A stretch of 64,000 bases of DNA from Prorocentrum cordatum. Lineage: Eukaryota. Below, piece by piece: positions 202-41,235 of the stretch (its first letter is position 1; each line of letters starts with the position of its first letter). The stretch is from positions 1,674,001-1,738,000 of the forward strand of contig CAUYUJ010000002.1 of the NCBI GenBank assembly GCA_963575745.1, written 5' to 3'. A model generated the notes under the pieces. The model did no database searches. It saw nothing but the letters and a program-made list of their open reading frames with translations, and had not been told where the DNA came from. Made by a program: the position numbers and the translations under genes.

Positions 202-238
<37 letters not shown>

Positions 239-264: not shown

Positions 265-322
<58 letters not shown>

Positions 323-2155: not shown

Positions 2156-2159
2156 ATGT

Positions 2160-5545: not shown

Positions 5546-5554
5546 TGGCCACAC

Positions 5555-9292: not shown

Positions 9293-9317
9293 CCTTGGTT
9301 GAGTGGTTGCCTGTCGT

Positions 9318-9475: not shown

Positions 9476-9559
9476 CCGTTGGGTATCGTGAAAACGTGCC
9501 CATGCTCCACATGTCTATATCCCTTTCCGGGTTCGTGGGTCCATCATGTTTGCTTTTCT

Positions 9560-11705: not shown

Positions 11706-11812
11706 TGTGAATGCCATCCAGATTTTAATCCCTAGGTTCAGCGTTTGGAGAGTCCGACCGTTTCGCGTTCTGGCTCAAGGGAAAAACATCCCAGGGGCGA
11801 TCTGCTGCCACA
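11706..11812 (+). repeat. Element A 5' LTR
   Basis: TGTGAATGCC...CTGCCACA, identical to 21350-21456. Confidence 0.97.
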
Positions 11813-11814
11813 GT

Positions 11815-11826
11815 TGGTAGCGGAGC
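11815..11826 (+). promoter_or_regulatory. Primer-binding site, initiator tRNA-Met-like
   Basis: TGGTAGCGGAGC lies 2 nt after the LTR and is complementary to a ...GCUCCGCUACCA tRNA 3' end. The same 12-mer is present in elements B and C. Confidence 0.85.
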
Positions 11827-11951
11827 GGGGTGACCCCGCTTCGGGCCCATGGGAGCTCCGGCGCGGCGCTGAGGAGGCGCTGTCCAGGAAGCTCTCGAGC
11901 GCCCGGAGCGAGGACCTCGCTTCCAGGTCCGACTGGCGTGGAGATCCACGG

Positions 11952-21196: not shown

Positions 21197-21333
21197 TTGA
21201 TCTTTGAGCCATCCGCCCAGAGACAGGCAAGGAGACCTTGATGAATTCAAGCGCTCTCTGTCCCAAGGACAGGTTGTCGGACACAGGTTCGACGATCGGA
21301 ATCCTCATTGTTTCTAGAAGCTGCTGAACCTAC

Positions 21334-21349
21334 AAGAAAGTTTGGGGCA
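21334..21349 (+). promoter_or_regulatory. Element A polypurine tract (imperfect)
   Basis: AAGAAAGTTTGGGGCA lies immediately before the 3' LTR. Confidence 0.65.
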
Positions 21350-21456
21350 TGTGAATGCCATCCAGATTTTAATCCCTAGGTTCAGCGTTTGGAGAGTCCG
21401 ACCGTTTCGCGTTCTGGCTCAAGGGAAAAACATCCCAGGGGCGATCTGCTGCCACA
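21350..21456 (+). repeat. Element A 3' LTR
   Basis: Identical to the 5' LTR and followed by TSD AGAG. Confidence 0.97.
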
Positions 21457-22019
21457 AGAGGATGTCTCAGGCTAAATGCTTGTTTTCACGTCCCGCTCGC
21501 AGGAATTCCGAGGATGTCTCACGCGTGCCGCGTCCCGCGCGCAGGAATTCTTAGGATTTTGACAGGATGTCTCGAGCGAAACGCTTGTCCCCAGCACGTT
21601 CCGTAGCGCGTCCCCTTGGCACGTCCCGCGGTGCGACCCCATGGCACGTCCCCTGGCACGTCGCCTGGCGCATCCCTTGGGACGTTCCGCGGCGCGTCCT
21701 CCTGGCATGTTCTCCTGTCCATTAGCTCTGGGGCAGCCACTAGGTGTTCAGGCAGCTCGAACTTAAGATCTAGATCAGTTCGGTCAGGACTCGGATGCAA
21801 AGGAGGACTCGATCCACGAGGCTATAGAGCACAATCGCGCCATGGCACATCGCAACTCAGCACGGCGCAGCACAGCACAGCCCTCGGCAGGCTACATCAA
21901 GATCGATACACTCAGCATTGCACTTGCCCATCACCCAATCAGGTGTCTTTGAACACGCTGACATGTGTTACAGTTCTGTATTCCTTTCCGGGTTCGTGGG
22001 TCGATCATGTCTGAACCAA

Positions 22020-24830
22020 CTTGGGGCCCTCTCGGGGCATTTTGGGCGTCTTGGAGGCCTCTTAGGCCGTCTTTGGGCCCTCTTGGGGCCGTTTTGGGGA
22101 CGTCTTGGGCCGTCCTGGGACCATCCTGGAGGCCTCTTGGTCGCTTTGGGGGCGATCTTGATGGCCTCTTGGACCATCTTGGGCCGTCGGAGGACCGAAA
22201 AGCAGCAGATTCTGAAATCCTTCAAAAATCGAAAGGCAATATATGCTTGTTCCATTTTGGTGACCTCTCTTGGCACGTTTTGGCGGCCTCTTGGGGGCCT
22301 CTGGTGCCGTCTTGGGCCTTCTTGAGGCCATCTTGGGCAATCTTGAGTGCATATTGGGGCCATGTTGGCCGTCTTGGGCCTTCTTGAGGCCATTTTGGAA
22401 ACACCTTGAATCAACATTTAGTTTTCTTGGGGCTATCTTGGCCGTCTTGGAGGCCATCTTGGGCGTCTTGGAGGCCTCTTGGGCAGTCTTCGGGCCATCT
22501 TGGGGGCCTCTTGGGCCGTCCTGGGGCCATATTGGAGGCCTCTTGGGCGATCTTGGGGCGATCTTGCTGGCCTCTTGGATCGCCTTGGGCTGTCGGAAGC
22601 CGCTCCAAAATTTTTAGACAAATCTACAGGAAATCTCTTCGGGCCATTCTGGAGGACCTCTTGGAGGCCTCTTGGGCCGTCTTGGAGACCTCTTTGGGGC
22701 CTCTTGGGCCATCTTGGGCCATCTTGAGGCCATCTTAGGCCGCCTTGGATGCATCTTGGGGCCATCTTAGCCGTCTTGGAGGCCATCTTGGCTGTCTTGG
22801 AGGCATCTTGGGGCCATCTTAGCCGTCTCGGATGCCATTTTGGCAGTCTTGGAGGCCTCTTGGGCCCTCTTGGGGCCGTCTTGGGGGCCTCTTGGGCCAT
22901 CATGGGGCCATCTTGGAGGCCTCGTTGGCGATCCTGGGGCGATCTTGTGGCTGTCTTGAGCCGTCGGAAGGCCGTTTCGGAAGCCTCTTGGGGCCCTCTT
23001 GGGGCCGTCTTGGGGCCTCTTGGGCCGTCATGGGGCCATCTTGGAGGCCTCGTGCAGGATCTTGGGGGGATCCTGGGGGCCTCTTGTGCCGTCTTCAGCC
23101 GTTGGAATCCAGAAAAGACGCAAATGCCAAAATCCTGCAAAGACGTAATGAACATCAACGATTTTGGTCTCTTCGGGCCCTTCTGGAGGAGCTCTTGGAG
23201 CGTCTGGGAGGCCTCTTGGGGTCTCTTGGGCCGTCTTTGGCCATCTTGAGGCTATCTTAGGCCATCTTGGGTGCATTTTGGGCCGTCTTGGAGGCATATT
23301 GGGGCCATCTTAGCCGTTTTGGAAGCCATCTTTGGGCCATATTGGGGTCTGGGGCAGGAAAAGCGTTTGCAACAGGGTCTTCCAGAAGGCCGGCGGGACG
23401 CGCCGGAGCCCCAGGGGGAGTTCTTTTGGAAAAGACCAAAACCAAAACCGAAATCATCTAGCACGCCGGGCACCCTTGTGATGAATCAACAGGCCTTTTT
23501 GGAAGCGCCGATGTGGCCGAACGTTGAGGCCAGACCTGCCAAGCTATCGGACCATGTGTTCCCCGAATCGGTTTGGAAAGCCTTCGGGGAACACGTGGGC
23601 ATCTTGAAGGTCATCTTGGCCGCCTGGAGGCCATTTTGACCCTTTCGGACCTTCTTTGAGGACGTCTTGGAGGGCTCTTGGGCCATCTTGGAGGCCATCT
23701 TGAGCGTCTTGGAGGCCTCCTGGGCCGTTTGGGGGGCCTCTTGGGGCCGTCTTGGGCCTCTTGGGCAATCTTTGGGGGCACTTGGGCCGTCTCGGGCCGT
23801 CGGAAGCCGAAAAAAAGCAAATGCCACAATCCTTCAACAACTCATGGGAAATCAATGATTTTGGCCTTTTCGGGCTTTCCTGGAGGCCTCTTGGGCCGTC
23901 TTGGGCCATCTTGAGGCCATCTTCGGCCGTCTTGGTGGGCCCCTGGCCCGTCCGACGCCATCGGAAGCCCCTTGGGGGGCCTCTCTGAGCTGACTTGGGG
24001 CCCTCTTGGAATGCTTCAGGGCCGTCTTGGAGGCCATCTTGGGCGTCTTAAAAGCCTCTTGGGCCGTCTGGGGGGCCTCTTGGGGCCGTTTTGGGGGCCT
24101 CTTGGGCCGTTCTGGGGCCATCTTGGAGGCCTCTTGGGCTATCTTTGGGCGATCTTTGGGGGCTCGTGGGCCGTATCGGGCCGTCGGAAGGCCGAAACGA
24201 AGCAAATGTCAAAATCCTACAAAAACCCATGGAACATCAGAGTTGTTGGCCTGTTCTGGCCTTTCTGGCGGCCCTCTTGGAGGCCTCTTGGGCCGTCTTG
24301 GGCCAGCTTCGAGCCAACGTCGGCCATCTTGGTGGGCTCCCGGCCCGTCTGACGCCGTCGGAAGCCGTTTCGGGGGCCTTTCTGGGCCGACTTGGTGCCT
24401 TCTTGGGGTGCTCCAGGGCCGTCTTAGAGGCCATCTTGTGCGTCTTGGAGGCCTCTTGAGTCGTCTTTGTGCCCTCTTGAGGCCGTCTTTGGTGCCTCTT
24501 GGGCAGTCCTGAGGCCGTCTTGGAGACCTCTTAGGCGCTGTGGGGGCGATCTTGGGGGCATCTTGGGCCGTCTTGGGTCGTCGGAAAGCCGAGAAGAAGC
24601 GAATGCCAAAATCCTTCAAACACCTAAGGAAAATCAACGATTTTGGCCTCTTCGGGCCCTCCTGGAGGACCTCTTGGTGGCCTCTTGGGTCGTGGTGGGC
24701 CGGCTTGGAGGCTTCTCGGGCGAATTTGGAGGTGTCTTGGACTCTCTTGGGCCGTCTTGGAGGCCGTCTTGGACCGTCTTGGGCGAATTTGGAGCCCATC
24801 TTGGACCATCCTGGAGGCGATCTTGGGCCA
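22020..24830 (+). repeat. TCTTGG satellite (left flank of element B)
   Basis: Same family; it resumes at 41236 after the element. Confidence 0.9.
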
Positions 24831-25114
24831 ACTTTAAACGGAGAAGGTTAAAGGCGAGGTATAAATCGAGCATGTACCGCTGCCGTGCCTGGCTCAAGCC
24901 GGGCCCGGCCAATATATGACTGTGCCTCACTGAGGCGCACAACTTGCATCAGAGATCGGAAAATACCTTTTCCATTGACGATGCCCATCCTATCCTTTAC
25001 TCCAGATCCCATGCTTCGTCTTGCTCTCTTGCTCATGCGATATGAGCCAAAGCCTGGGATATGGCAACGCTTAAAGCGTAACACATACCTAAGCTTACCA
25101 GCTTGTTTTCGACT
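24831..25114 (+). repeat. Element B 5' LTR
   Basis: ACTTTAAACGG...GTTTTCGACT matches 40952-41235 at 282/284. TATAAA is at 24860-24865. Confidence 0.95.
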
Positions 25115-28100
25115 TGGTAGCGGAGCTGGCTACACTCTCGTGTGGCTGGCTCTCGCTCTGATTCCTGTAATCCACGGCACAACTTGGTGGACTACTACTA
25201 CGGTGGAATACCATGTTGCGCCGGCTCTGCGAGGAGCGGAGCCAGTCCGCGATCGAGCTAGCGGGGCAACCCGCGAACTCGAGACGCTCTCTCCTACTTC
25301 ACTGCGCTACTTCACTCCCGACTTCCACCAGATGCCAATCGGCAACTCGATCGAGAACGTGGTCACCCTGCGGGGCTACCCGCAGCGGGGCCACCTGCAT
25401 CCCGTGCCGGTCAGGCGCCTCACGGCTACCACGCCAGAGCCTGACAAACCACAGCCCAAACCAATCACCGAAGCCGAAATGCACATGCATTGGATTAAGA
25501 TAACTATCTTCGGCATTCTGTGGGTAATAATGGGATGTGCTGTGGGATACATGCGGCAGGGGATGGACGACACGCGTACTACTGGCCCTTCATGGGACCC
25601 TGCCGGTACTACGCCTTTCCGCGAATACGTTCGCGAAGTACATGCATGGTTAAACGTAACGAGTGGCAATATGACACCACCACAACAAGCTGCAGCACTA
25701 CAACGAGGCCTTCAAGGTCTGGCTCGTCGTATCGCCATGCAGGTCCCCTCCCAGATCATCAATTATGGTGTAACTGTCAATGGACAGCCAACGGATGCAG
25801 TAACATATATACTGTACTTACTGAGCACCAAATTTGAAAATCTGGAAGATGAGCGCCAGCTCAACTCTGGCACTGCCCTTATCGACTTCCGCGTCGAAAG
25901 GGGCGAGCGAATCGACTCAGTATTAGCTCGATTCGAGATGGCCCGTGACGAGGCTAACTCTGTTGGTTTTGTCATCCCCAACTTTCAGATCCTAACGCTG
26001 ATTCTCTTCAGAGCGTTAGGCGTTGGCGCGTCACGAGCCCAACACCTGCTTGAGCCCTTCAATCATCAGATGCCCCGAACACAAGCAGACTATGACAGGC
26101 TGCTGACCAGGATGAGGAACTACGGACATGTTGCCGAGCGCTCTCCTGGCAACATAGCGGGTATCTTCACAGGGCACCACTCACATGCAGGTGTCTACGC
26201 CACGACTGCGGGGTCACCCGCTGGTCCTGGCGAGCCAAATCCCTGGGCTGACCCAGCCGATATGCCCAACGAGGCCACTGCCCTCTTAGGGCAGACCGGC
26301 CAGGCATCGGCAGAGGCAGCTGAGGCGAACGCCTGGTCGAACTACTCGCCAGGCGCCGCCTACACTGCAAGCCCGCCCTCGGGCACAACCCTCTGGGGCC
26401 AAGCGGAGTCATCCGCTCAAGGGTCTCAGCCACCCTCACCGTTTGAATCTGGCACTGACACAGATACCTCATCTGACGATGAGCACAATGGCATAGTCTC
26501 TGCTGGTAATGACTACCCAGCGGATGACACTCACCTCTCTGAACAACAAAGAGCGGAAGCCGCTTTTATGGCTTATCGCAAATCAAAACGCCGTTGGAGG
26601 CGCTTTATGAAGAAACCAGTCAGAAAGGTGAGACGTGCAGTACGCCGACATTTCAAACGATTTGGAAAGGGTCGTGGCAAAGGGGGTCGCAGACGCCGCA
26701 TGCATGGTAGGGGTATTACTGCTTTCCTCACGTCCTTAACTGATATGGCTTTTGAAGAAGTTCTTATCGGAGGCAAAGGTCGGGGTCACAGGCGGACCTC
26801 CGGTAAGGGAAAAGGGCGGAGGGGCAACCCTAGGGACGCTTCTGGCAATACTATGAAGTGTCATACATGCGGTAGCACAGAGCATTTGCGCGATCAATGC
26901 CCGAAGGGGAAAGGAAAGGGATCCGTACATGTGGCTCAAAATTCTTTTATGGATGACATAGATTACATTGACTACGAGTTTTACGTCAATCCAGACGCGG
27001 CCCCCGCCGCGGGCTCCTCCACGTATTACGTGATGGCCCGCTACGCTGAAGCAACCGTAGCCCTGGAAGACTACGCAGAGACCCTCTTCGACGAGTTCCA
27101 CGGCTGGGACGAGGTCGACGAGGTCGCGTACAATGCTTGGTTCGGTCTTCCAGCGGGGCCACCCGCCGGCGACGAGGTCTCCGAAGCAGAGACCGTCCCG
27201 GCAACAGAGGAAGAACTCACCGCCGTGCTGGCACCGCAAGTAATTGGCACGCCGTTGCTGCCAAATCCTTCGCGGGCTGGTTCGGAGGCGGGAGACGCCG
27301 ATGACGAAATGCGGGGCCATCCCGCGTATTCCGACTCCGAAGAAGCCGAAGAAGATTATAAGGACATGCTCCAAGAGGAGGTCTCAGAAGCAATCCGACT
27401 CCTGAGTGCGCCAGCACATCAGCACATAACCATGAACGAACTGCTGTCACACCCAGGAGTTGCACGTCTACGTCCATACTTGGATTCGAACATGTCAGCA
27501 TCTCAGATGTTGACAGCACTCCAAGCTCTAGCGGGGTCACCCGCCGAAGAGACGCTAGACGCAACAGCGGGGCCACCCGCTTGGTCTATGGATGTATTCA
27601 TGCAAGGTTGTGATCAAATGGACATTAACGACCTCACGATGGAGCAGTTAAACGACATCGGGTATTTCAGAAGCCCGTATCAAAACGTGTTCATGGTCCA
27701 GGACAGCTCAGAGGACTCGGAGGACATGCGTTACGCCAAGAGGGACAGGCGACCGTCGCCTCCCCGAGACTCAGAGCATGACGACCAAAGGCCAATGACA
27801 CGTGGTAGTGCGTCAGCGGGGCCAGCCCGCGGAAGGAGCCGTTCAGCTCCTAGACGCCCTACGCATGATGAATCGGGCTATCCATACAGTACTGAGCACT
27901 CCGTTGGAGTATCTGCTCAACAAGTGCCGGATTGGTACATCAGATGGTACCCCGGCTACTCGATGGATACTCTTCGCCACTGGTATTCTAAGGAGTATTG
28001 CACTAAAAGGGACGAAACTGGCGCGATAATACGTACCAAGGGTGGCAAGACCAAGACGCCAGAGGCTTGGGACAAAAGGGCTAAGAAGCAGGAGATCATC

Positions 28101-31100
28101 AACGATCGCAAGACATACAGGAAACAAGTATGTCAGTGCGAGCCCTTCAAAGGTCACATGCGCAGGTGTCCGATGGACCGCCCCTCCAGGAGCCCTCATC
28201 ACGGTGAGACCCCGTGGAATTGGTCTCATGGAGATGACGCTGGCAACGTCCATGATCCTAATAAGGAGGTCCCTGGAGGAGGAAAGCGCATCACCGAAGC
28301 CGATCGTGTCCCTATGACCGAAGAGGTGGCCAACATCGTCAGGGAAAATTGGGTACAGCTTCCCAATGACCATCGCCTCAAAGAATGGAACCGCCGATTT
28401 CATAAAGAGGCGGGGTCACCCGCAGGATCCAGTAAAGAGGCGGGGTCACCCGCAGGATCCAGCAAAGAAGCGGGGTCACCCGCAGACGCGGCGCCCGCCG
28501 CTGGGTCCGCGGAAGACGATTGGATAGCTGTTGCATCTGCTGCTGAGTCCGCCGCCGGCACTGACCACACCGAACTGAATGAAGAATGGGCGGCGGAAGA
28601 CGGCTCAGAGAATCCATTCCCTGACGGAAGCGCTTGCTGGTACTACAGCTCTTCGGCGCAGAAGTGGTTCTGCACGAGGGTAATCTACCGCCATGAGAAT
28701 GGCAAGTACAAGCTGGCCATAAAAGGTACTGCCGACATCGACCAGATGAGGCAGGTCATCCATGATCATGGCCAGCCAGAAGGCCCTCCTAGAGACCCTC
28801 CTAGTCCACAACCGGGCAAGGGCAGCAGACCACCTCCAAGACCTAAAGCCGACTCCTCGTCTTCACCGACTCCTGCGAAAAGGCACCCGTCCAAGAGCCC
28901 CGAAGGCACACATGGGCGGGCGAAGGCCAGAGGGATCGCCAAGACGGACGACCCTGAGCCGGCAGATCCTCCCGGTCTGTCCGTGACAGAGAGGAAGAAG
29001 GCTTTTGCTGGACCATCGACCCCGATGCCACCGGCGACCCAAGGCGATGTCAAGGACGAAGTTCGTGACAAGCCTCAGGCAGCTTTCAGGGGTGACTGGA
29101 CTCCAACTCTGCATCAGCCGCGCCTTGCACCACGACCAGGTTCGGCACGAATGAAAGCGCAGCCGAAGCCCGAAGCTGGGATGAGGTCGGTACGGGCGGA
29201 AGCGGCCGCCAAGGCTAAGGAGGACAAGGGCTCTGCGGGGCCACCCGCTAAAGCGGCGCCAGCCGCAACAGCGGGGACACCCGCAGAAGGCACTCTCTCA
29301 AGAGAAGAACGCTTCAGAGTCCTCAAAGAGTTTGGCGACCAACAGAAACTAACCGATGATGCAGCTGCTGACGAAGGTCACCCGAACCCTGGCGCGGAGT
29401 CATCCGCAGGAGCTGCCTCGTCGGCCGCAGGTTCTGCAGGGCCACCCATTAAAGCGGCGCCAGCTGCATTAGCGGGGCCACCCGTTAAAGCGCCGCCGGC
29501 TGCATTAGCGGGGCCACCCGCACAAGGACAGCCAATAATGTCTGTTCTCAGGAACATCCCTTTGGGAGCCATCGAATACTGGCAAGGCATTGAAGGCAAA
29601 GGCCCGAAGCGCACCATAAACCCACGAGTCACTCCAGACGATACGGACCGATACGAAGTCATTAATTGTCCGGTTCGTCGTAACTTCGAGTGCCGCAACG
29701 ACTGGGAACGTGAACAACAAACCGTGGGAAATATGTTGCGAGACAGGCCGCCACTACGCGTTGCGCAGCATAAAGCAGAGCTCCTGAAGGTCATGGAGAG
29801 GTTCGGCATGGATCCGACTTTGCCGCGCGAAGGGCAGATGACCAAGGTGTCAATGTGGTTTTCTACAGCCCTACGCCACAGTCCATATTGGAAGGACGGA
29901 TTCAGCCGACACTTCGAAAAGATCAGCACTTACGATCCATACGATGGCTGGGTGGTCGTTGACGATCTGCTGACAAACTGGACTGAAAATGATCAGTGGA
30001 AAGGCTATCGTGAAATGCACGAGGTGCTGATCAAGGGCAGGCCCCACACGTCATACGTGTATTGGGTGCTGCTAAACTGCTGTGAGATGATTGACCATCA
30101 CGGCATGCAGAAGGGCAGGCTCCAGATGAAGTGCGTTGATGACAGCATGCTGCTGCCTCCCAGGTTTCGACCGAAGGCACGCAGGCCACAGTACTTCATC
30201 AGAGCCACGAACGGCCACAGCAGTCCAGGCATCCACTGTCCCGAGTCGCTGTGCAAGCCGATCACAACATGGATGAAAGAACCAGACGACCCAGTATATT
30301 TCATCCACGGGACACAGTGGGAGTATGTCAAGGACATCCTTGCTAATGGCCTTTCATGCCTCGCACAGGACAACCCTAAGAGGAAGGGGGGGCGCCAATT
30401 TGTGCACGGCTGCCCCTACCTCCCGGGCGACCCGAGGATTCAATCGGGCATCCGTCCTGACTCGGAGGTGCTCATATTCTGCAGCATCAACAAGATGCTG
30501 TCCAGTGGCTTCTCTCTATGGAGATCAGCAAATGACATAGTCATGACACGGGGCCACGACGGACGTATACCGCCCGATCATATCCTCCAGATTGTGAGCA
30601 TTGCGAAATATCGGGTCGGCGAAGCCTGGAGCAATCCGCTGGCTTATGACAAGTCGCGGAGGCGGGGCCAACCCGCGGACAGGATTCGCACCGATGACTA
30701 CCTGCCACTTAAAATGTGTGACAGAACTCTGGGTGTAATGGAAGATCACGCCATGTACCTAAAGGGCTGGACTAAGACGGACGGTCGCCCATTCAATTTG
30801 ATCATGACCGAGCAAGATGTTGCTCCACGACCGTACGACACACAGACAGTCCTCATGATGAATGCCCAGGAGGACGAGGTCATGCCTGAAGCGGGGCCAC
30901 CCGCAGGTGCGGGGACACCCGCGGTAGACACCTCGGACGGTTCATGGCAACAAGTGGTCACACCAGTAGCAACGGTAGCATCTCCTTTGAGGCCGGACCA
31001 GCAGTCATGGGTCCAGGCCCTCAACAGCCATTTGACATCAGCCGACGTCTCTGGACTGACCGATCAGCTATATCGTGCTGACCCGTGGGCGGTGCATACA

Positions 31101-34100
31101 GGTATCCAAGACGCACAGCAGAGGAACCTGCGCACTCCTGCGGGGCCACCAGGCGTCCTAGGACCACAACCACAACGCCCTCCGCAGCAGGCTGGAGGTG
31201 CGAGGTTTGTCCCTATGGGCGGTTCAGATGGTGGCTCGCCGTTTCGGACTCCGCCGTCTGAAACGAGCGAGAACAGCCTGTGGCAACGACTCCAGGCGAT
31301 TCGCGGAAATCCGGCGCTCGCAGCAGCACTCCAGGCGACCACTCCCTTTGGCACTCCGAGGGGTAGTGAAGGAGGAGTGGCTGCGGGGACACCCGCCGAG
31401 CGAACGCCTGCGGAGTCATCCGCACATGCGGGGCCACCCGCTGACGGACAGCAAGGTTCAGACTACGAACGTCGGGCAGCCAACTTGAGAGCACAGGCTA
31501 CCTTTCTGCAGCAACAAGCTGATAGAGTGCCCAGCCTGTTGCGGAACCGCAACATAGATGTTACGAATCATGGCGACTTTCGGCCTCTCTGGAGCTGGAC
31601 TTCTGAAGATGCTCCAAATGCTGATCCCACGAATCCATATCGACAGGTGTTTATTCCAGGAATAGCATCACACCCAATATATGGATGGGACAATCATGGA
31701 CCAGCAGAGGCACAGGCCATGGACGCGCCGATGTACCCGGAGTACTACGCGCAGATGAATAACACTCCTATGATTGCGGGGCCACCTGCGAACGAATACA
31801 CTCGGAATCTTGCCAATGAGATGTTTCGTTTGCAGTTTACACGAGCGGTCGATGCGCAGTCTATGCCGCACTACGCCTACATGCCCACGCCGACGGACCC
31901 CGAGACCGTAGTTCAGCCAGCTGGTCTCGCGGTGCCAGCCGCTATGGGCAGCATGCCAGACTACATCCGCGACGTGCACAACACGCAGCAAGCGATACTG
32001 GCATCTAGGCAGCAGGCTCGGGACAACGCCAGGCTGCGCCAACAGCGCGCGATCCAGAGAAGGATCGAGCGTGAAAACCAAGCGGGGACACCCGCAGACG
32101 CGGGGCCACCCGCTGAACGAACAGATAGACTGCCGCCACCGACGCCATATCGGGAGGGCGAAACCACTTTCGAGCGTCAGGCTCGGACTCGCCCCGACGT
32201 GCCTGCTCCAGTCATTTCAGACTACAACTTCACACAGTGCCCAATCTGTATGGACTCCTACGAGATGGGCACCACAGTGTGGAGACTGGCGTGCGGGCAC
32301 TTCTTCCACGATATATGCTGGGATCGTGTTGCACAGCAGCACGTCCGCAATCAGCGACCAGGTGCGCCGAACGAGGCCCCCTGCGCTGTATGTCGTGGGC
32401 CGGGCATAATTACAGCACATTTCCCGTATGCTGGACAGCGCGACGCTGAGTCGGAACAAGCGCGCCAGCAGGAAAGGTACGTGGTAGATGCCCGGGAACT
32501 GCGTCGGCTGCGGGAAGCAGTGGAGGCACTAGAGGCTCGAGCCGCACACTCGGCGGAGCCATCCGCACGTGCCCCAGCTGCACAGACACACCCCTGGCCA
32601 GCGCCAGAGCAAGGCATCCAGATGCCAATCCTGCCTACGCTTCGAGCGCAGGAGCCCCCAGCAGCGGGGCCACCCGCCGAAGCGGCTCCCGCCGCCAAAG
32701 CGGGGCCACCCGCAAATGGACCTCCGAATCCAGGATTCCTGAGGGCAATGGAGGCCAATATCAGGCGGAGTGGCAGGAGCGGAGGCGGGACGCGCAGGCC
32801 GACTGGATCATCCAGGACCTCACGTGTGGCGAGCCCGGTCAGCGCTAGGAGCCGGGCAAGCGCTGAAAGCGCGGAGGCAGCCCAGTTCCACACCACATTC
32901 ATGATTGATACAAAAGGGCTGACCTATGCACGTGACGACACGGACACGCTGCCGCCAGGAGGTGAATGGACGTCCACACTCTCTGCGAATTATTGGGTTC
33001 TTGAACAGGAACCAATTACCGTAGAGGAGCGCCGCCAATATGAGCAGATGTGGTGCACCGAGTTAACCATGAGCCAATGGGTGCTTGAGCAGCGCCTGTT
33101 GAAAGGCACACTCGGTTCACAGATTACGTACCACACTGATGACCATGGTACGATGGCTCTGGCAGCGCGGAACGGGACGTTCTTCCCTGACGAAGACGGA
33201 CTGCCGTGCATCTCGTTCATGCTAGACATTGGCTCCAACGTGAACATCATCGGAGCCAATACGGCGCGAACCTTCCAGGAGGCTATGGCCAGGTACAATC
33301 ACAGACCTGCCATATGCACCCTGAGCAAGACCCTCTACATCAACGGTGTCGGTGAGGGTGCTGCGATATGTCGGAAAATGGGCAACTTCAAGATCGGGGT
33401 GCAATACGCCAATGAGGCAAGCCCCCGTATCGAGGAGTATGCCTCCAACATCGCAGAAGGCTCGGGTGCCAACCTCCCGGCCATCTGGGGCCTTGGTGCC
33501 ATGGAAGCACGTGACACGATCATCGTGCTGAAGCCAGGCTACCAGAAGGTTATCTTCCCCAGCGGAGATTATACTCTGAAGCTGGGGAGGGGCGCCAAGG
33601 TCCTGAGGGCGAAGAAAACTCCCTCAGGACATCTAGCCATTCCCTGCGGTTTGTATGACGGGGCTAAAAGCCAGACGGTCACGAACACCTTCACAATCCG
33701 CAGCAGTCGAGATGGCTACACCGAGACGGAGAACGAAGAGGACCCCGTCAGTGCGGGGCCACCCGCCGGTGTAGGTGCGGGGCCACCCGCCGGAGTAAGT
33801 GCGGGGCCACCCGCTGAGACCACAGCGGGGCAACCCGCGACGGGACAGTCCATGACCGTCACGACTGATACGTACATTGTCGAGCCGTATCTCGACAAGC
33901 AGCTCCTGGAAGACACGACCCGTTTGATCGTGGACAGGACGCTGAACAGCTGGTGGGAGGGCCAACAGTGTCCCGAAGGGACCTGGCCACATATGAAGGA
34001 TGCCCTGAAGTCCAAGATATTTTGGGCAGTCCAGGAGGCGGTGAATAAATGGACGCCTGAGAACCAAGCGGGGCCACCCGCGACACCGCCACCACCACCA

Positions 34101-34247
34101 AGCTACACGGGCGGAGGTTCGTCGGATTCTGCGGGGCCAACCCGCGTGGAGATCGTGAGCGTAGCCGCACCAGCGACTCCTGCGGAGCCATCCGCTAACA
34201 GCATGCCCCCGAGTCAGACGGCAACGTGGTCACACGACCGCCGCTGA
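24981..34247 (+). CDS. Element B ORF1 (~3088 aa): hydrophobic N-terminal segments, Gag, CCHC knuckle, SH3/Tudor-like module, Tpt1/KptA domain, RING-H2, aspartic protease
   Basis: First ATG at 24981, positionally conserved in element C. Gag PSWDP..PFREYVREVHAW (~25590); CHTCGSTEHLRDQC (26859-26900); Tpt1 motifs 29838-30600; RING 32238-32396; protease FMLDIGSNVNIIG (~33225). Confidence 0.92.
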   Translation: MPILSFTPDPMLRLALLLMRYEPKPGIWQRLKRNTYLSLPACFRLGSGAGYTLVWLALALIPVIHGTTWWTTTTVEYHVAPALRGAEPVRDRASGATRELETLSPTSLRYFTPDFHQMPIGNSIENVVTLRGYPQRGHLHPVPVRRLTATTPEPDKPQPKPITEAEMHMHWIKITIFGILWVIMGCAVGYMRQGMDDTRTTGPSWDPAGTTPFREYVREVHAWLNVTSGNMTPPQQAAALQRGLQGLARRIAMQVPSQIINYGVTVNGQPTDAVTYILYLLSTKFENLEDERQLNSGTALIDFRVERGERIDSVLARFEMARDEANSVGFVIPNFQILTLILFRALGVGASRAQHLLEPFNHQMPRTQADYDRLLTRMRNYGHVAERSPGNIAGIFTGHHSHAGVYATTAGSPAGPGEPNPWADPADMPNEATALLGQTGQASAEAAEANAWSNYSPGAAYTASPPSGTTLWGQAESSAQGSQPPSPFESGTDTDTSSDDEHNGIVSAGNDYPADDTHLSEQQRAEAAFMAYRKSKRRWRRFMKKPVRKVRRAVRRHFKRFGKGRGKGGRRRRMHGRGITAFLTSLTDMAFEEVLIGGKGRGHRRTSGKGKGRRGNPRDASGNTMKCHTCGSTEHLRDQCPKGKGKGSVHVAQNSFMDDIDYIDYEFYVNPDAAPAAGSSTYYVMARYAEATVALEDYAETLFDEFHGWDEVDEVAYNAWFGLPAGPPAGDEVSEAETVPATEEELTAVLAPQVIGTPLLPNPSRAGSEAGDADDEMRGHPAYSDSEEAEEDYKDMLQEEVSEAIRLLSAPAHQHITMNELLSHPGVARLRPYLDSNMSASQMLTALQALAGSPAEETLDATAGPPAWSMDVFMQGCDQMDINDLTMEQLNDIGYFRSPYQNVFMVQDSSEDSEDMRYAKRDRRPSPPRDSEHDDQRPMTRGSASAGPARGRSRSAPRRPTHDESGYPYSTEHSVGVSAQQVPDWYIRWYPGYSMDTLRHWYSKEYCTKRDETGAIIRTKGGKTKTPEAWDKRAKKQEIINDRKTYRKQVCQCEPFKGHMRRCPMDRPSRSPHHGETPWNWSHGDDAGNVHDPNKEVPGGGKRITEADRVPMTEEVANIVRENWVQLPNDHRLKEWNRRFHKEAGSPAGSSKEAGSPAGSSKEAGSPADAAPAAGSAEDDWIAVASAAESAAGTDHTELNEEWAAEDGSENPFPDGSACWYYSSSAQKWFCTRVIYRHENGKYKLAIKGTADIDQMRQVIHDHGQPEGPPRDPPSPQPGKGSRPPPRPKADSSSSPTPAKRHPSKSPEGTHGRAKARGIAKTDDPEPADPPGLSVTERKKAFAGPSTPMPPATQGDVKDEVRDKPQAAFRGDWTPTLHQPRLAPRPGSARMKAQPKPEAGMRSVRAEAAAKAKEDKGSAGPPAKAAPAATAGTPAEGTLSREERFRVLKEFGDQQKLTDDAAADEGHPNPGAESSAGAASSAAGSAGPPIKAAPAALAGPPVKAPPAALAGPPAQGQPIMSVLRNIPLGAIEYWQGIEGKGPKRTINPRVTPDDTDRYEVINCPVRRNFECRNDWEREQQTVGNMLRDRPPLRVAQHKAELLKVMERFGMDPTLPREGQMTKVSMWFSTALRHSPYWKDGFSRHFEKISTYDPYDGWVVVDDLLTNWTENDQWKGYREMHEVLIKGRPHTSYVYWVLLNCCEMIDHHGMQKGRLQMKCVDDSMLLPPRFRPKARRPQYFIRATNGHSSPGIHCPESLCKPITTWMKEPDDPVYFIHGTQWEYVKDILANGLSCLAQDNPKRKGGRQFVHGCPYLPGDPRIQSGIRPDSEVLIFCSINKMLSSGFSLWRSANDIVMTRGHDGRIPPDHILQIVSIAKYRVGEAWSNPLAYDKSRRRGQPADRIRTDDYLPLKMCDRTLGVMEDHAMYLKGWTKTDGRPFNLIMTEQDVAPRPYDTQTVLMMNAQEDEVMPEAGPPAGAGTPAVDTSDGSWQQVVTPVATVASPLRPDQQSWVQALNSHLTSADVSGLTDQLYRADPWAVHTGIQDAQQRNLRTPAGPPGVLGPQPQRPPQQAGGARFVPMGGSDGGSPFRTPPSETSENSLWQRLQAIRGNPALAAALQATTPFGTPRGSEGGVAAGTPAERTPAESSAHAGPPADGQQGSDYERRAANLRAQATFLQQQADRVPSLLRNRNIDVTNHGDFRPLWSWTSEDAPNADPTNPYRQVFIPGIASHPIYGWDNHGPAEAQAMDAPMYPEYYAQMNNTPMIAGPPANEYTRNLANEMFRLQFTRAVDAQSMPHYAYMPTPTDPETVVQPAGLAVPAAMGSMPDYIRDVHNTQQAILASRQQARDNARLRQQRAIQRRIERENQAGTPADAGPPAERTDRLPPPTPYREGETTFERQARTRPDVPAPVISDYNFTQCPICMDSYEMGTTVWRLACGHFFHDICWDRVAQQHVRNQRPGAPNEAPCAVCRGPGIITAHFPYAGQRDAESEQARQQERYVVDARELRRLREAVEALEARAAHSAEPSARAPAAQTHPWPAPEQGIQMPILPTLRAQEPPAAGPPAEAAPAAKAGPPANGPPNPGFLRAMEANIRRSGRSGGGTRRPTGSSRTSRVASPVSARSRASAESAEAAQFHTTFMIDTKGLTYARDDTDTLPPGGEWTSTLSANYWVLEQEPITVEERRQYEQMWCTELTMSQWVLEQRLLKGTLGSQITYHTDDHGTMALAARNGTFFPDEDGLPCISFMLDIGSNVNIIGANTARTFQEAMARYNHRPAICTLSKTLYINGVGEGAAICRKMGNFKIGVQYANEASPRIEEYASNIAEGSGANLPAIWGLGAMEARDTIIVLKPGYQKVIFPSGDYTLKLGRGAKVLRAKKTPSGHLAIPCGLYDGAKSQTVTNTFTIRSSRDGYTETENEEDPVSAGPPAGVGAGPPAGVSAGPPAETTAGQPATGQSMTVTTDTYIVEPYLDKQLLEDTTRLIVDRTLNSWWEGQQCPEGTWPHMKDALKSKIFWAVQEAVNKWTPENQAGPPATPPPPPSYTGGGSSDSAGPTRVEIVSVAAPATPAEPSANSMPPSQTATWSHDRR
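25115..25129 (+). promoter_or_regulatory. Element B primer-binding site, tRNA-iMet-like
   Basis: TGGTAGCGGAGCTGG abuts the LTR end. Confidence 0.85.
29838..30600 (+). other. tpt1/kptA-like: Tpt1/KptA (PTS_2-RNA) NAD+-dependent RNA 2'-phosphotransferase domain within ORF1
   Basis: Ordered family motifs: STALRH, DGWVVVDDLL, KGRL, IRATNGHS, IHGT, ILANGL, GRQFVH, SGIR...EVLIF, LWRSANDIVMT, GRIPP. Confidence 0.9.
32238..32396 (+). other. RING-H2 (C3H2C3) finger within ORF1
   Basis: CPIC-x14-CGHFFHDIC-x21-CAVC, with W directly after the sixth ligand. Confidence 0.88.
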
Positions 34248-37200
34248 CGGGGGCAGGCGGGCGCGCCGGCGGCGCTCGCTTGCGAAGAGAAGCCGAATAC
34301 CGGCCTCCTCGCGACATACGTTGGCCGCGCTGAGGCCCGAGAAGAAAAATATCATTCAAAATGTCTCGTCATCGAAGATATTCGCACAGCTTGCGCTGAA
34401 CTCCGAACCCGTGGATATATATGCGACCGGATTACCCATAATGAGGTAATGACTTCAACTGGAACACAGTATTTGGGAAATTTGTTGGCAGGAGACTACA
34501 ATATGTTGTGGGTGGCCACACCCTCTGATTGGTACGTTCGTACTCCAGGAAAGAGGGCGGGACCACATTATCAACGTATACAAAATCTCCTGATCAAAGC
34601 GCGTGCTCTGAGAATGCAGATAGTTATCCTGGGGCCACCCGGGTATTTCTGGAAACAGGGTCCGATCAAAGATGTTATCGAAGATTTGAAGCTAAGCATT
34701 ATACGAATCAGACTCTGTCATTTCGGTATCAAGTTTGACCGATCCAGTAAATATCCCAGTGGTTCTTATATACAAGTTGCTACATCTTGTCCTCATATAC
34801 CGATAAACTTATGGAAATGTACTTGTGGCTCACACAAGGAGCATGATTTGGATTGGTATGGCCAAGATCAGCAACGTGCCGAGTTTCGGTATAAAACTTT
34901 GGCTATTATTATTGCACGCTTCCTTGATCAACTCGATAAAGCCAACATGATCAGGAATGAGCGGAGTGCGGTACACCTCAGTGTGTGTACACGCGTTGAC
35001 AAAAAGGTCAGACACTACGTCCAATGTCCACAAAAGGGCCCTCAATGGGACCATGTGGTTCGTAGGGTCACGACCGACCTGGACACGAACAAGATCGTTC
35101 AAGATATCAGAATCCAGGATCAGCCAACTGGGTACAATTATGTAGCTCCATTACCTGATGGGGTTACAAACATCAGTACTCGGCTATACTGGGAGCCTCC
35201 GGCTCCAGTTCTTCATGGCAATGGTGAGTCGCGAAGGCCACGCCCAAAGCGTGTGACGATCGTCGACGACGATCGATCTCCTCCCCCTTCGATTGAGCGT
35301 TGCCAAACGCGACCCACCAACAACCTTCCTGAAATTCCGCCATTTCCTGACTTTACAGCGGATTCCTCCGCAGCGGATCTCTCCGCGGAAACTGCGTTGC
35401 CCACTGATGCCAGGATAAAACAGAAAGAAAAGCAGAAAGCTGACAAAGAAGCCGGCATCAAACCGAAGAAAGTCCCGAAGAAAGTGGAAGACGGTAACGA
35501 CGACTGTGGAGAGGACCTCAAAGGGCTTGACTGCTCCACATATTTCAACGACGTTCCTCTTGACGACTCGGACTCGGACAGCGAATCAGAGGACATCTTC
35601 ATGATGTTACCGGCGGGGCAACCCGCTGACTCACATGCTGATGTCTTCTCGATAGTCCAGTCGTTATGCTACGGCAGAAACAATCAAGTGGACATGCTTG
35701 AATTATGTGGGGGCAAGGGTGGTATATCCATATTAGCCTTCAAGAGGGGACTCTCGTCAGGCGGGAACCTTGACAAGATATCTATGGTTGACCTTGGAAA
35801 CTCGGAAGTACAAAGAGCAGTCCTCCACTACCTCAAGACTTGCTTTGTCAAGATCACGATTCTGCAGCCAAGCTGCAGAACTACTGGACTTCCTTCCTAT
35901 TTCAATGCACAGGTCAATCATGATACGTGGCTTAAACACCACAAAGAGGACCTGCCTCACATCACGTTCTGTGGAACAGTCGCTCTATTACAAGACGACC
36001 TAAGACGTTTCTTTCTCAGGGAACAACCAATGGGCACGTGGGTGGATGAGATCCAGCCATGGAAGGAACTGGCACAACGCAAGGTCACTTGCCAAACGAT
36101 TATTGATCAGTGCACGACTGGTCTCAAAGATTCATTTGGACAATACATCCGCAAGCCAACACAGATGATGGCAAACAAAGAAGAGTTGTTGGCACCTTTC
36201 AGAGGCAAGCGTTGTCCAGGTAATCATGTGCACGCCAATGCTTGTAATAAAGAACTAGCAAGGGCGGCACAGTATACCTACAGAATGCAGTCACTGATCG
36301 TTGATGCGGTGCAAATCGCCAAAGACCTGTTTGCTTACGGTCGCGATCCATTCGCGAATCGTGAACGCAGCTATGCGTTCGTAACAAACAGTGCTGGCTA
36401 CGACTTGGACGACCCAACAATCCGGAGACACCCAAACGGAGAAATCTGGCGACCACCACCTGGCGGTCTTGGGTGCCCTGGCTGTGTGGACAACAACTAC
36501 AAGCAATCACCAAAGCACAGCAGGGATCCGAAGATGTGTCGGTGGTATGATGTTGAACCGTATTACTGGGACTGTCCAAGCTGTAAGAAGGAATATCAGA
36601 AGAGCAATCCTCACCACACCAAGATATCTGGCCAATGCAGATTCGCCGAAAAATGGAAGCTGCCAGATAACTTTGGCCAGCCGCGCCCGGCGGGGCAAGC
36701 CGCTCCTGCGGCGCCAGCCGCGGAAGCGGCTCCAGCCGCAGAAGCGGCGCCAGCCGCAAAAGCGGCGCCGGCCGCGAGAGCGCGCATACGCGCGCCTAGG
36801 CCGCCACGGCCTGGTGAGGGCGATCCAACCGCAGGCGCCAGCAGCCATGACATCACCAGAGCCGACGGGGCTAATGGTGGCAACAGTGGCGCTGGCAGCT
36901 CTGACGATCACCGTAGACTGCCACAAGTTGCAGCAAGGCGCGGACGCATGGAGGGAGGAGATCCTCCACCACCGCCGCAGCCTCAAGCAGAGCCGAGGCC
37001 AAGGCCAAGGCTCCCTGATTGGACTCGCTTCGACGTTCAGCTCAGCCTCCAAAACCTGCGCAGCTTCGACCCAGCTGTAGTGCAGCGAGAACTCCGCAAA
37101 CTCCACCTGAGATGGTTTCATGCCAAGGAGCCAAAAATGCGGATGATTCTAACCAAGGTTGGTCTGGGTGAAACCCGTTTGAGTCTGATCAAAGGCATTT

Positions 37201-40200
37201 GTGACTCGTGTAGAGAATGTCGAGCCTGGGACAAACCAGGCAACACGGTGATGCCTTCTGTGTCACTGCCAGGACGTTTCAACGAGGAAGTCGAATGTGA
37301 TCTTTTCTTTTACAAACAGGAACATATTGTTTTTCACATCATCGACCGTTGTATTCGCTGGGCAGCTGGCACAGAGATTCCTGATAAAGCCATGCATACT
37401 GTTCTCGATGCCTATCATACGACTTGGATGCAACATGGCCCTGCTAAAATCTTATACTCCGATGGGGAAGGAGCACTGAATAATGATACAGCAAAGGCCA
37501 TCCTTAAGGCTAAGGGAACAGAGCTTCGTATTCGAGCGCGTGGCCAACACGCTACAACTATCGAAGCTAGGAACGGCATCCTGCGACACCTCTTACACGT
37601 GATGGGAGAAGAATTGAATAGATTAAATATTCCTCTCAATTTCACTCGTCTCTTACATGAAGCCTTGTTTGCCAGCAACGCATTTACCTTCTACAATGAA
37701 GTGTCTCCGTACAATGCGCTGTATGGCAGACAACCAGCTATGCTTCCCGATTTCCCTGTCTTGGATCATGATCAGTCCGCTGAATCATCAGATCACTCAA
37801 GGGAGGAAACAATCAGGAGGGTTAGTCTGGAGGCAATCACGCAGGCCACTGCGGTTGCCAAGACGAACAGGGCTCTCCGTACGAAGACTACTGCTACGGG
37901 TGAATTTCACTACAAAGAGGGAGATCTCGTGGACTATCATCGCCCGACCACCACGAAAGACGACTGGGGTGGATGGAGTGGTCCATACCCGGTCATCCGC
38001 AACGAACCTGACCGAGGCCAGGTCATCGTGAAGGTCGGCAGTCGCGAAGTGCGAGTACAGTATCCTGACACACGACACACACTGTACATCGAAGCACTTA
38101 TGGTCCGCGAGATAGGATCGGACAATACGGCCCTTCGGACAGTATTGGCCTTTATTGCCGGTCTGCCAGCGGGGAAACCCGCCATGACTTTCGGATATCT
38201 ACCAGCGAAACAGGGTCGGCTGCAGATGACTGCTGCGAGCCGACTTTCGCCTAAGGTGCACTTGGCTCTTCAGTACCTCATACGCAACTACTTTCGTATT
38301 GAAAACGTTGTTGCTGTACGACTTGCCAAGAGCCTGACGAAGTTGCCTGCTGCACCCTATGCAGACAGCTGTACACTAGTGCACTATGATAATGATGTGA
38401 CCCCTGGTTTTCATTACTATGAAGCTGATGGCACTGCCTTGAACATCTATGACATCACAGGATCTACACACTCACGCATCATCCAGTGTCTTAAATCCAG
38501 GAAGCCGTCTGCTGGATTTGACCAAGACCTCACTAAGTTTGAGGAACTCGCTGATGGTCCACCACCAAGCGAATCACCTCCAGCAGCTGCTCCTGAGGAG
38601 CCTCCTACGGATAACGATGGTCGGCTCCCGACCATCATAGAGGAAACAGAAGAAGATCTGGATGCTTTTGTCTTGAAGTCGTGGTATGCTGAACTGATGG
38701 ATGACAGAACACTCCTTGAAGCTGACACAGAGGAAGTCATGCATACAGTTCCCACATACATGACAGACACACAGTGTGTGTTAGTCTCTACGACCTGTGA
38801 AGATGTGCAAGGCCACTTGCCGGAGCGGGGTCACCCGCCAGGATACGACATGGACACTTCTTACTACGTTCCTTTATGCTCCACGGATCCGGATAGCAAA
38901 TATGATCTGGACTCCGATGAGCACGGGAAGTACATCGAGCTCTGCTTCACTGCAGACATGTCCAAAGTCGTCCTGTCCGAGCAGCAACACCGATTGTTGG
39001 ATGACAGCAGCGTCACAACTATGCGAGTATACGTTAGCGCTGCCTCCAAACGTGCCGTGGTCGTCAAGGAAGACGATCTACTCACGAAGGCCGACATCCA
39101 AGCAAATCCGGTCAAAGTTTCCAAAGCCCTCTACACAGAATTGAAGACTTGGCTTGACAACAAATGCTTCCAGATGACTGACTTAAGCAAGGCGTCTAAC
39201 ATCATGACGTCACGCTACGTATACAAATGGAAGTTTGTCAAGAACGAAAAGGGCGAAATGGAAAGGACGATCAGGTTACGCTTGGTACTCCGTGGCTTCA
39301 TGGACCTCGAAGCCTTTGATGTCGAAACCTTCTCTGGCACGGCAAGGAGGTCAAGCCAGAGACTGCTCGCAAGTTCTGCTGCATGCAACAAAGCTTGGAT
39401 CATCGCTTCCCTGGACATCAACATGGCTTTCTTGAAGGGACTGACCTATGGCGAGCTCGCCGCGGCAACGGGCGAGAAAGAGCGTGTGGTGTGCTTCACA
39501 CTACCACCTGGGTCAGCAGCTGTCCTTCGCACACTGCCAGGCTTTGAGTCATATGACGAATCAAAGCATTGTCTCCGGTGTCTGAAACCGGGGACGGGCA
39601 CGAAGGATGCTCCCAGGGCATTCTCGCTGAAGCTCAGGTCCATCACTAGGAGCTTTGGGCTACAGCCTACTTCATACGACGAAGAGTTCGAGATGAGCCC
39701 AAACCTCTTGACAGCCAAGCACGTTGATGACATCAATATGACTGGGAAGGAAGAGGCTATTGACAAGTATGTCAAGTGTGTTGAAGATACGTTTGGGAAG
39801 TGCAAACTGAACAAGCACACATACACAAACTGTGCCGTTCGGTACAACAAGACCGATGATGGGAGCGTCACTCTCGATCAGGACGAATACATCAAACAGC
39901 TTCGTCCTATCACACATCCAGAACTCACAGGAGCTGATCCTGAGAGCAAAGCGACAAAGACGATTTCTGATATGTTCGTCAGTCTTCGTGGCGCTCTAGC
40001 CTATGCGTTGATCACGCAGGTATGGCTGATGGTCTATGTTGTCTCACTACAACGTATCCAGGAACCGACAAACATCCAGGTACGACGACTAAACGCGGTT
40101 ACCAGAAAGCTACAGGCAGGTCCGAAGAAGATCGTGTATCAAGCTATGACCCCAACAGGAGAAGTCGACCTGCATAGCGATTCTGGCTATCGTCGTCTCA

Positions 40201-40847: not shown

Positions 40848-40951
40848 CGAGGCTACTCGCGCGCCCTTTCCTTGTAGGCAGCCGCTGCTGCTTAGCACTG
40901 TTTTTCCGCATAATGTAAAAGTGCGGTACCTGCTCGTCTCCTCCCCCTCCG

Positions 40952-41235
40952 ACTTTAAACGGAGAAGGTTAAAGGCGAGGTATAAATCGAGCATGTACCG
41001 CTGCCGTGCCTGGCTCAAGCCGGGCCCGGCCAATATATGACTGTGCCTCACTGAGGCGCACGACTTGCATCAGAGATCGGAAAATACCTTTTCCATTGAC
41101 GATGCCCATCCTATCCTTTACTCCAGATCCCATGCTTCGTCTTGCACTCTTGCTCATGCGATATGAGCCAAAGCCTGGGATATGGCAACGCTTAAAGCGT
41201 AACACATACCTAAGCTTACCAGCTTGTTTTCGACT
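40952..41235 (+). repeat. Element B 3' LTR
   Basis: Matches the 5' LTR and is followed by TSD GGCCA. Confidence 0.95.

Follow-up and report, generated by a model that had tools for sequence, protein, structure and literature searches.

A Tpt1/KptA domain embedded in the first open reading frame of a Ty1/copia-type retrotransposon from Prorocentrum cordatum

Tpt1/KptA enzymes occur in all domains of life, and their function is established only for cells in which a 2'-phosphate remains after tRNA splicing. Whether Tpt1 has a role outside tRNA splicing is a question that has been raised in enzymology papers (passages of PMC6097658 and PMC6573784). The question returns in a different form in a 64,000-nt stretch of Prorocentrum cordatum DNA (hereafter the window; all coordinates are window positions, on the + strand), where a previous sequence-only reading had placed a Tpt1 domain with a catalytic tetrad inside the 'Gag ORF1' of a copia-type retrotransposon, here termed element B. 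Why would a retrotransposon encode such an enzyme? As set out below, we regard it as practically beyond doubt that a real Tpt1 domain resides inside a real copia element.

The identity of the domain was addressed through profile searches and structure modelling. In Pfam, PTS_2-RNA (PF01885) matched residues 1670-1901 of the first open reading frame (ORF1) with an E value of 2.1e-15 (57.6 bits, where the cut-off is 26), and an excised 433-aa stretch scored 64 bits (E 2.4e-17), covering profile positions 6-177 of 177. When the PDB was searched with phmmer, three sequences were returned at E<=0.01 and all three were TRPT1 enzymes, namely human 7yw3 (1.6e-13), mouse 7yw2 (2.7e-12) and yeast 7yw4 (0.0033). 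An AlphaFold2 (AF2) model of the domain, built from a 50-row alignment, had a mean predicted local distance difference test score (pLDDT) of 86.1 and a predicted template modelling score (pTM) of 0.79. Foldseek aligned this model to 22 PDB entries at E<=0.001, the best 20 of the 22 all being Tpt1/TRPT1/KptA; the top match was 7yw2 (E 3.3e-14, TM(target) 0.81), TM(target) values to the TRPT1s ranged from 0.78 to 0.81, and the first match past this set had an E value of 0.015. The Tpt1 match in ORF1 is thus far beyond chance, and both checks suggested with the original reading, by HMMER against PTS_2-RNA and by AlphaFold, came out in its favour. As modelled, the domain is a Tpt1 with the two-lobe fold of this family, which consists of a winged-helix RNA lobe and an ADP-ribosyltransferase-type NAD (nicotinamide adenine dinucleotide) lobe. 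The prokaryote-oriented NCBIfam models gave no match to the domain, consistent with a eukaryote-type Tpt1, and a PHROGs scan returned only a weak match to RNA 2'-phosphotransferase (E 0.004).

The catalytic residues were located on the translation of 29781-30680, where LRH is encoded at 29871-29879, the Arg of K-G-R at 30117-30119, HGT at 30306-30314 and the Arg of GRQFVH at 30393-30395, exactly as had been read from the letters alone. In domain numbering, the tetrad corresponds to R32/H33/R113/R205. A 14-sequence alignment with cellular Tpt1s showed R32, H33, K111, R113, R141, G145, H146, H176, G177 and T178 to be invariant, of which R32/H33 belong to LRH, K111/R113 to K-x-R, R141/G145/H146 to IRA..GHS, and H176/G177/T178 to HGT. 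The Arg of GGRQFVH (R205) aligned in HMMER to the Arg of human GRTHIH, which is R150 by counting from the alignment start, and QSGIR of element B aligned to the human SGMR loop (the SGxR motif). According to passages of PMC10415124, the 2'-phosphotransferase tetrad consists of R23/H24/R71/R138 in the yeast enzyme (Sc) and R40/H41/R86/R150 in the human enzyme (Hs), the Arg of K-x-R is essential for 2'-phosphotransfer and partly needed for 5'-phosphate (5'-P) ADP-ribosylation, and the SGR motif is conserved in eukaryotic TRPT1s and substituted in bacteria and archaea. Pfam, phmmer, AF2/Foldseek and the alignments therefore agree on a Tpt1 domain with its tetrad. Since the tetrad, GHS, HGT and SGxR are all present, the domain is by its residues a catalytically complete, eukaryote-type Tpt1, and it is likely to be catalytically active and NAD+-dependent. 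Retention of the tetrad was counted over 59 transposon-type rows, using for each site only the rows that cover it; R32 and H33 were each kept in 17/17, R113 in 28/29 and R205 in 33/39.

The domain is part of a long element with the following features.

24828-41235, + strand: element B, a 16.4-kb Ty1/copia-type long terminal repeat (LTR) retrotransposon.
24828-25114, + strand: 5' LTR of 287 nt, 99% identical to 40949-41235 by blastn, with 3 mismatches in the alignment.
25115-25131, + strand: primer-binding site (PBS) TGGTAGCGGAGCTGGCT, which begins with TGG and abuts the 5' LTR.
24852-34247, + strand: ORF1, stop-to-stop, 3131 codons without a stop; the first ATG past the PBS is at 25332, and the frame ends with TGA.
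26856-26906, + strand: CCHC zinc knuckle, a gag/nucleocapsid marker; the match to Pfam zf-CCHC is sub-threshold (E 0.0019-0.0088), and CHTCGSTEHLRDQC was read directly.
29859-30554, + strand: Tpt1/KptA domain (Pfam envelope); the folded domain spans approximately 29781-30650.
32235-32396, + strand: RING finger; Pfam zf-C3HC4_2, zf-RING_2 and zf-RING_11 exceed their cut-offs.
33222-33239, + strand: putative protease motif LDIGSN near the end of ORF1, read directly.
34245-34247, + strand: in-frame TGA in the context TGA-C, read directly, between ORF1 and the second open reading frame (ORF2) in the same frame.
34248-40847, + strand: ORF2 (pol), 2199 codons in the same phase as ORF1, ending with TAG.
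37083-38036, + strand: integrase-like region, ORF2 residues 945-1262; tblastn match to a neighbouring element A at 17145-18167 (E 6.6e-7, 23% identity).
39159-39938, + strand: Ty1/copia-type reverse transcriptase RVT_2 (PF07727), 40.9-44.7 bits against a cut-off of 31.6.
40949-41235, + strand: 3' LTR of 287 nt, the partner of the 5' LTR.

The LTRs, the PBS and RVT_2 support the placement of the domain, ahead of an in-frame TGA, in ORF1 of a copia-type LTR element, and the 3131 codons of 24852-34247 bear out that this ORF is intact. Its description as a Gag ORF was correct in part: gag is present, but it is followed by ~2400 further codons that include the RING finger and the protease-like D-I-G-S. 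The order of ORF1 is gag with the CCHC knuckle, ~1000 residues without assigned function, Tpt1, RING and the protease-like segment, after which come the TGA and pol. The Pfam scan gave no protease match to the LDIGSN segment, and the protease assignment is for this reason putative; a metagenome protein (P0010) has MDIGSN as the counterpart of this motif. The TGA at 34245-34247 is the sole stop in about 5330 codons of element B. Variant copies from runs X1 and X10 skip 34-44 nt within 34199-34250, upstream of the ORF1 stop, and retain CTGACGGG; the TGA is therefore conserved across subfamilies. This layout is the one expected for gag-pol expression by TGA readthrough, and readthrough itself is predicted. 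Within ORF2, Pfam rve gave no direct match, and the stretch of element A that matched the integrase-like region contains the Pfam rve match of that element, which indirectly places a putative integrase upstream of the reverse transcriptase.

The 20 nt at the PBS, ACTTGGTAGCGGAGCTGGCT, are the same in element B and in a metagenome relative (L001, see below), with the upstream LTR diverged. This site presumably resembles the 3' end of an initiator tRNA; no tRNA genes were present within the window, so that no tRNA could be matched to the PBS there. A polypurine tract was not found before the 3' LTR (40848-40948), where the pyrimidine-rich CTCCTCCCCCT was present instead, and no unambiguous target-site duplication was found, as the GGCCAAC at both borders (24826-24832 and 41236-41242) runs into the 5' LTR where its alignment begins. 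The internal region of element B was covered in 30/30 bins by contigs from three sequencing runs, with many variant contigs, which fits a multi-copy family. Element B is an intact and probably active retrotransposon.

To what extent the domain is maintained was apparent from its relatives. A metagenome scan with a 5-row transposon-type alignment gave 84 pattern matches, two of which were confirmed (L001 and L002); among viral contigs, the transposon-type profile gave 33 pattern matches, none of which was confirmed as a relative. The JGI metagenome contig L001 contains an open 2653-codon frame with gag, CCHC, PF01885 (61.8 bits) and RING in the same order as in element B. Its gag is 49% identical to that of element B over 766 aa, and the CCHC knuckle is conserved. 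P0010 (1627 aa) combines PF01885 and RING in the same layout, so that RING is co-conserved with Tpt1 in both L001 and P0010. The NAD lobe (ORF1 residues 1801-1900) was 55% identical between element B and L001, and is the best-kept block outside the gag core. The tetrad, GHS, HGT and SGxR were all kept in the intact copies, that is, element B, L001 and L002. L002 aligned without gaps to L001 over 260 domain codons, with 0.129 nonsynonymous (dN) and 0.875 synonymous (dS) substitutions per site and a dN/dS ratio of 0.147 (Nei-Gojobori). Furthermore, among the best 40 of 756 copy variants of element B, 27/40 were synonymous, as compared to 30% expected from the observed mutation spectrum (P 1.5e-6), and within the Tpt1 domain this was true for 5/6 of the variants among the same best 40 of 756 (P 0.01). 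These codon-level data make it very probable that the Tpt1 domain of this retrotransposon lineage is under selection.

Two further elements are located in the same window.

11736-20150: element A, a separate copia family with a single 2804-codon frame containing CCHC, rve and RVT_2.
~57608 to beyond 63968, + strand: element C, a divergent relative of element B that matches its ORF1 with 28-49% identity in changing frames.
61725-62832, + strand: decayed Tpt1 of element C, seen as tblastn segments in frames 3 and 1.

The Tpt1 segments of element C occupy the equivalent position in ORF1 and are 28% (61725-62339) and 49% (62359-62832) identical to element B. They read IHP for IRA, GHR for GHS, RGT for HGT and FG for SG. 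The sequence-only reading was right that element C has a homologous domain at the corresponding position, but it passed over the decay of this copy, which by its sequence is a pseudogene and shows that Tpt1 was once present. Accordingly, the claim that the lineage inherits the domain stably, as opposed to a single chance capture, holds, its best support being the open frame of L001 and the dN/dS of 0.15 between L001 and L002, not element C. Judged from these sequences, Tpt1 was acquired before the lineages of elements B, C and L001 split. Two transposon-type Tpt1 proteins (P0003 and P0006) that are 55-72% identical to element C were found in a EukProt set labelled Pyramimonas sp., a green alga; this could reflect contamination or a wider host range of the family.

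Elements B and C also share a dispersed 14-nt motif, GCGGGGNNACCYGC, which occurs at 38 sites where 0.03 are expected, all on the sense (+) strand of these two elements (31 sites in 25261-40808 and 7 in 59764-63996). The motif is mostly translated as AG[PSTQK]PA, yet copies read in either of the remaining frames or lying in the 5' leader show that it represents a nucleotide-level signal. It folds into a 5-bp GCGGG/CCCGC stem with a GNNA tetraloop. A looser form, GCNGGNNNNCCNGC, was found at 17 sites in the distant relative L001 (599-8494), at least one of them at an aligned position, and a search of the window showed no copy of the motif in element A or in the flanks. One idea is that the GNNA hairpins may be packaging or nucleocapsid-binding signals.

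With respect to function, the answer that we tentatively prefer, at somewhat less than an even chance, is that an intact copia element has a selected Tpt1 which carries out the canonical reaction on the element's own replication intermediates. To our knowledge, every Tpt1 studied performs 2'-phosphate removal, and because of this and of the Arg of K-x-R, which is kept in 28/29 sequences, the canonical reaction is preferred. Tpt1 would be translated within the ORF1 polyprotein, and therefore presumably made in Gag amounts, and the segment would be released by the element's own protease. Its substrate would be a phosphomonoester on the element's own replication intermediates: Tpt1 would strip 2'-phosphates, for instance those left where a Trl1-type ligase rejoins broken 16-kb genomic RNA or tRNA or, alternatively, those on ends remaining after endonuclease cuts. 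A 2'-phosphate on RNA blocks reverse transcriptase, which could then copy the unblocked template. That clean-up of 2'-phosphates on its own RNA or primer is the selected role seems to us possible, at about one chance in three. Processing of the tRNA primer looks the weakest of the roles proposed earlier, because base pairing at the PBS takes an intact tRNA 3' end and because initiator-type tRNAs, which such a PBS resembles, are usually intron-free.

Several observations weigh against canonical 2'-phosphate removal by a selected Tpt1. Firstly, the domain is divergent. PF01885 scored ~60 bits for the transposon domain as compared to 123-188 bits in six single-domain cellular proteins, and a 14-row alignment revealed three lineage-specific insertions in its RNA lobe. 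In an 86-row domain tree the five transposon-type rows group as a starred clade whose stem is very long (2.96 changes per column), with no resolved sister among the other 81 rows. In view of the long stem, the low Pfam score and the insertions, the substrate or activity of the transposon Tpt1 may differ from the canonical one. Secondly, the active site is not retained throughout: the His of HGT was replaced in 9/31 transposon-type sequences (8 Arg, 1 Tyr) and kept in 22/31, and the fourth tetrad Arg (R205) was lost in 6/39. The replacements of this His suggest that the site has decayed repeatedly or else is altered or inactive in one sublineage, and the transposon-type sequences so appear to include many decayed copies or an inactive sublineage. 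Among the sequences with Arg in place of this His is element C, in which the Tpt1 reading has an internal stop and a frame change (three-frame reading). Thirdly, element A, a copia family in the same window, lacks Tpt1 and also RING, which means that copia elements of this host can do without the domain. Fourthly, Pfam, NCBIfam and PHROGs scans of ORF1 and ORF2 detected no RNA-repair partner (ligase, kinase, 2H/CPD or Macro), and the presence of 2'-phosphorylated RNA in this organism is an assumption of the proposed mechanism. Lastly, the 40 copy variants are the best-supported subset of 756 and not a random sample.

The alternative that fares best, which we nevertheless hold to be unlikely, is that Tpt1 caps nucleic-acid ends with ADP-ribose. 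Taken from NAD+, the ADP-ribose would be placed on the 5'-phosphates of element RNA, primer or linear complementary DNA (cDNA), and the capped ends would be shielded from exonucleases, end-joining or sensing until integration. Capping of 5' ends by Tpt1 is not known to have an established biological role, and only some Tpt1s cap 5' ends. The nearest solved relatives of the domain by sequence and by fold are the mammalian TRPT1s, which ADP-ribosylate 5'-phosphorylated nucleic acids (passages of PMC10415124, PMC12678800 and PMC6182162), and the equivalents of human R40, H41 and R150, which are needed for 5'-P ADP-ribosylation, are present. By contrast, the Arg of K-x-R is kept in 28/29 sequences though largely dispensable for that reaction, which speaks for the canonical one. 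The RING finger that is co-conserved in the same ORF would fit capping if the ADP-ribose were further ubiquitylated in a DELTEX-like manner; DELTEX RING ligases, as described in part of PMC10810221, ubiquitylate ADP-ribose on nucleic acids. However, Pfam detected neither a DTC domain nor an ADP-ribose hydrolase (Macro, NADAR) in element B.

A broader reading, which we consider decidedly unlikely, holds that the element runs an ADP-ribose-based marking of nucleic-acid ends, with packaged Tpt1 either capping 5'-phosphates or clearing 2'-phosphates; the RING finger and the ~30 sense-strand GNNA hairpins would then join the recognition or protection machinery. If true, this would be the first natural role of Tpt1 beyond tRNA splicing, and the first retroelement to modify its own replication intermediates chemically with NAD+.

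Both a counter-defence role and a non-catalytic role are less likely than capping. Improbable as we judge it, Tpt1 could be a counter-defence or host-manipulation factor that mends or modifies host tRNAs or other RNAs cut by defence nucleases, or that disrupts NAD+/ADP-ribose-based immunity; the element's own nucleic acids would then not be its target. The long branch would suit fast, conflict-driven evolution, and the RING finger in the same ORF also speaks for such a role, but a dN/dS of 0.15 indicates conservation and not an arms race. We know of no host defence nuclease in this setting, which counts against such a role, and no ligase or 2H partner was found in element B with Pfam, NCBIfam or PHROGs. 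A precedent is that KptA domains in other selfish elements have been read as RNA-repair or conflict modules (passages of PMC9503650). Very improbable is a pseudoenzyme that merely binds RNA or has a structural part in the capsid polyprotein, with no catalysis. The strong divergence, the insertions in the RNA lobe and the replacement of the HGT His by Arg in 8/31 relatives would be in line with it; yet element B, L001 and L002 all retain the tetrad along with GHS, HGT and SGxR, and the NAD lobe is the best-conserved part, neither of which would be expected of a plain RNA binder. Barely credible, and already disfavoured, are a functionless piece of a host gene, picked up and carried along neutrally, or an assembly or annotation artefact: retrotransposons do take up host sequences, the copy in element C is decayed, and public gene models of the species splice element pieces into chimeric genes, but 3131 unbroken codons, the same architecture in independent contigs of other collections, the dN/dS of 0.15, the synonymous excess among copies and the coverage of 30/30 bins in three independent runs all argue against it.

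As for the origin of the domain, a representative protein set (1.84 billion) was searched with the Tpt1 domain, and 703 matches reached E<=0.001. A eukaryotic source of the transposon Tpt1 is suggested by its SGxR loop and by the fact that its best matches are mammalian. Unusual architectures were seen among the cellular-type relatives (P0106, P0152, P0019, P0027 and P0061). One of these relatives joins Tpt1 to a C-5 cytosine DNA methylase (1513 aa), another consists of SPRY, a tRNA-ligase CPD and kinase-like region and Tpt1 (1700 aa), and further ones have two to four tandem Tpt1 domains per protein.

In ORF2, the segment at 34251-37100, ~950 codons upstream of the integrase, is without family assignment. 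A block within it (35631-36530) is common to element A (16230-17129, 25% identity) and contains a G-x-G-G-like motif. We considered a methyltransferase as the source of this motif, LELCGGKGG...QPSC, and gave up the idea for lack of support: there was no Pfam match, the best PDB match had a non-significant E value of 0.2, BLASTP showed no similarity to the DNMT-bearing P0106, and an AF2 model from a 2-row alignment was uninformative (pLDDT 32.3). The flanks are satellite-like at 1-10000, 20200-24800, 41250-44000 and 49980-51140, being built of ~400-bp units in which sub-repeats of the CTCTTGGGCCGTCTTGGGG type recur, and two arrays, at 8545-9293 and 49981-51137, have periods of 16-22 nt.

The nearest named proteins to element B are fragmentary Prorocentrum cordatum models with 81-98% identity, which places the host as this dinoflagellate or a near relative of it. 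Seven public gene models of this species (P0002, P0009, P0011, P0012, P0162, P0005 and P0013) contain element pieces (29556-30167 and 33000-33629); in P0002, P0005 and P0009 two distant pieces are joined like exons, some models bear host-gene names, and none of the seven carries a Pfam Tpt1 label. The transposon has therefore been mis-annotated as host genes. Since public gene models hold spliced fragments of the element, Tpt1-like 'host genes' in dinoflagellate genomes may be transposon pieces.

That purifying selection has preserved a Tpt1 with a complete catalytic site in a retrotransposon lineage suggests a second selected role of this enzyme, in reverse transcription or at RNA or cDNA ends, and the retrotransposon Tpt1 would be a compact system in which to study it. 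The domain adds a new enzyme class to the accessory domains captured by retroelements. The sequence-only reading knew of no earlier description, and we likewise found no prior report of Tpt1, KptA, TRPT1 or PF01885 in a retrotransposon in the open full-text literature, a scope that leaves aside Repbase, Dfam, subscription journals and supplements; the co-mentions of PF01885 and retrotransposon that were retrieved were unrelated, by title or by table context as far as these show.

How does element B compare with known systems? With cellular TRPT1 (7yw2, 7yw3, 7yw4) its domain shares the two-lobe fold, the tetrad, GHS, HGT and the eukaryote-type SGxR donor loop. It differs in that it sits in a retrotransposon polyprotein, whereas cellular Tpt1 is a stand-alone protein of ~200-250 aa, and in its three RNA-lobe insertions, its own long-stem clade and its lower Pfam score. 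Among selfish elements, KptA has been described in jumbo phages, sawfly nucleopolyhedroviruses and Bodo saltans virus, and within polyproteins of two RNA viruses, one picorna-like and the other a nidovirus (passages of PMC9503650). These viral cases and element B are alike in being selfish elements, two of the viral cases are polyprotein-embedded as well, and processing of RNA ends, be they the element's or the host's, has been proposed for them in the same passages. Element B, in contrast, belongs to the LTR retrotransposons, which copy their RNA into DNA and integrate it. The terms retrotransposon, retroelement and transposon are absent from PMC9503650, and the record of polyprotein-embedded KptA, virus-only before, now extends to retrotransposons.

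A second comparison is offered by retrotransposons with a DNMT domain, reported as DIRS-like and LINE elements in Symbiodinium and as Gypsy elements in Klebsormidium (de Mendoza et al. 2018, passages of PMC5890265). In the same passages, the Copia elements of Symbiodinium are without any DNMT domain and Tpt1 is unmentioned. The DNMT-bearing dinoflagellate retrotransposons and element B have in common a stable accessory nucleic-acid-modifying enzyme, element B being different in that this enzyme is Tpt1 and the element copia-type. Finally, SmTCL of Symbiodinium microadriaticum, as described in passages of PMC5776459 (Chen et al. 2018), shares with element B the LTRs, an integrase before the reverse transcriptase and an RVT_2-type reverse transcriptase. 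Against that description, element B is set apart by its length of 16.4 kb and ~5300 codons, by the in-frame TGA before pol and the dispersed 14-nt hairpin motif, and by the presence of Tpt1 together with a RING finger in ORF1.

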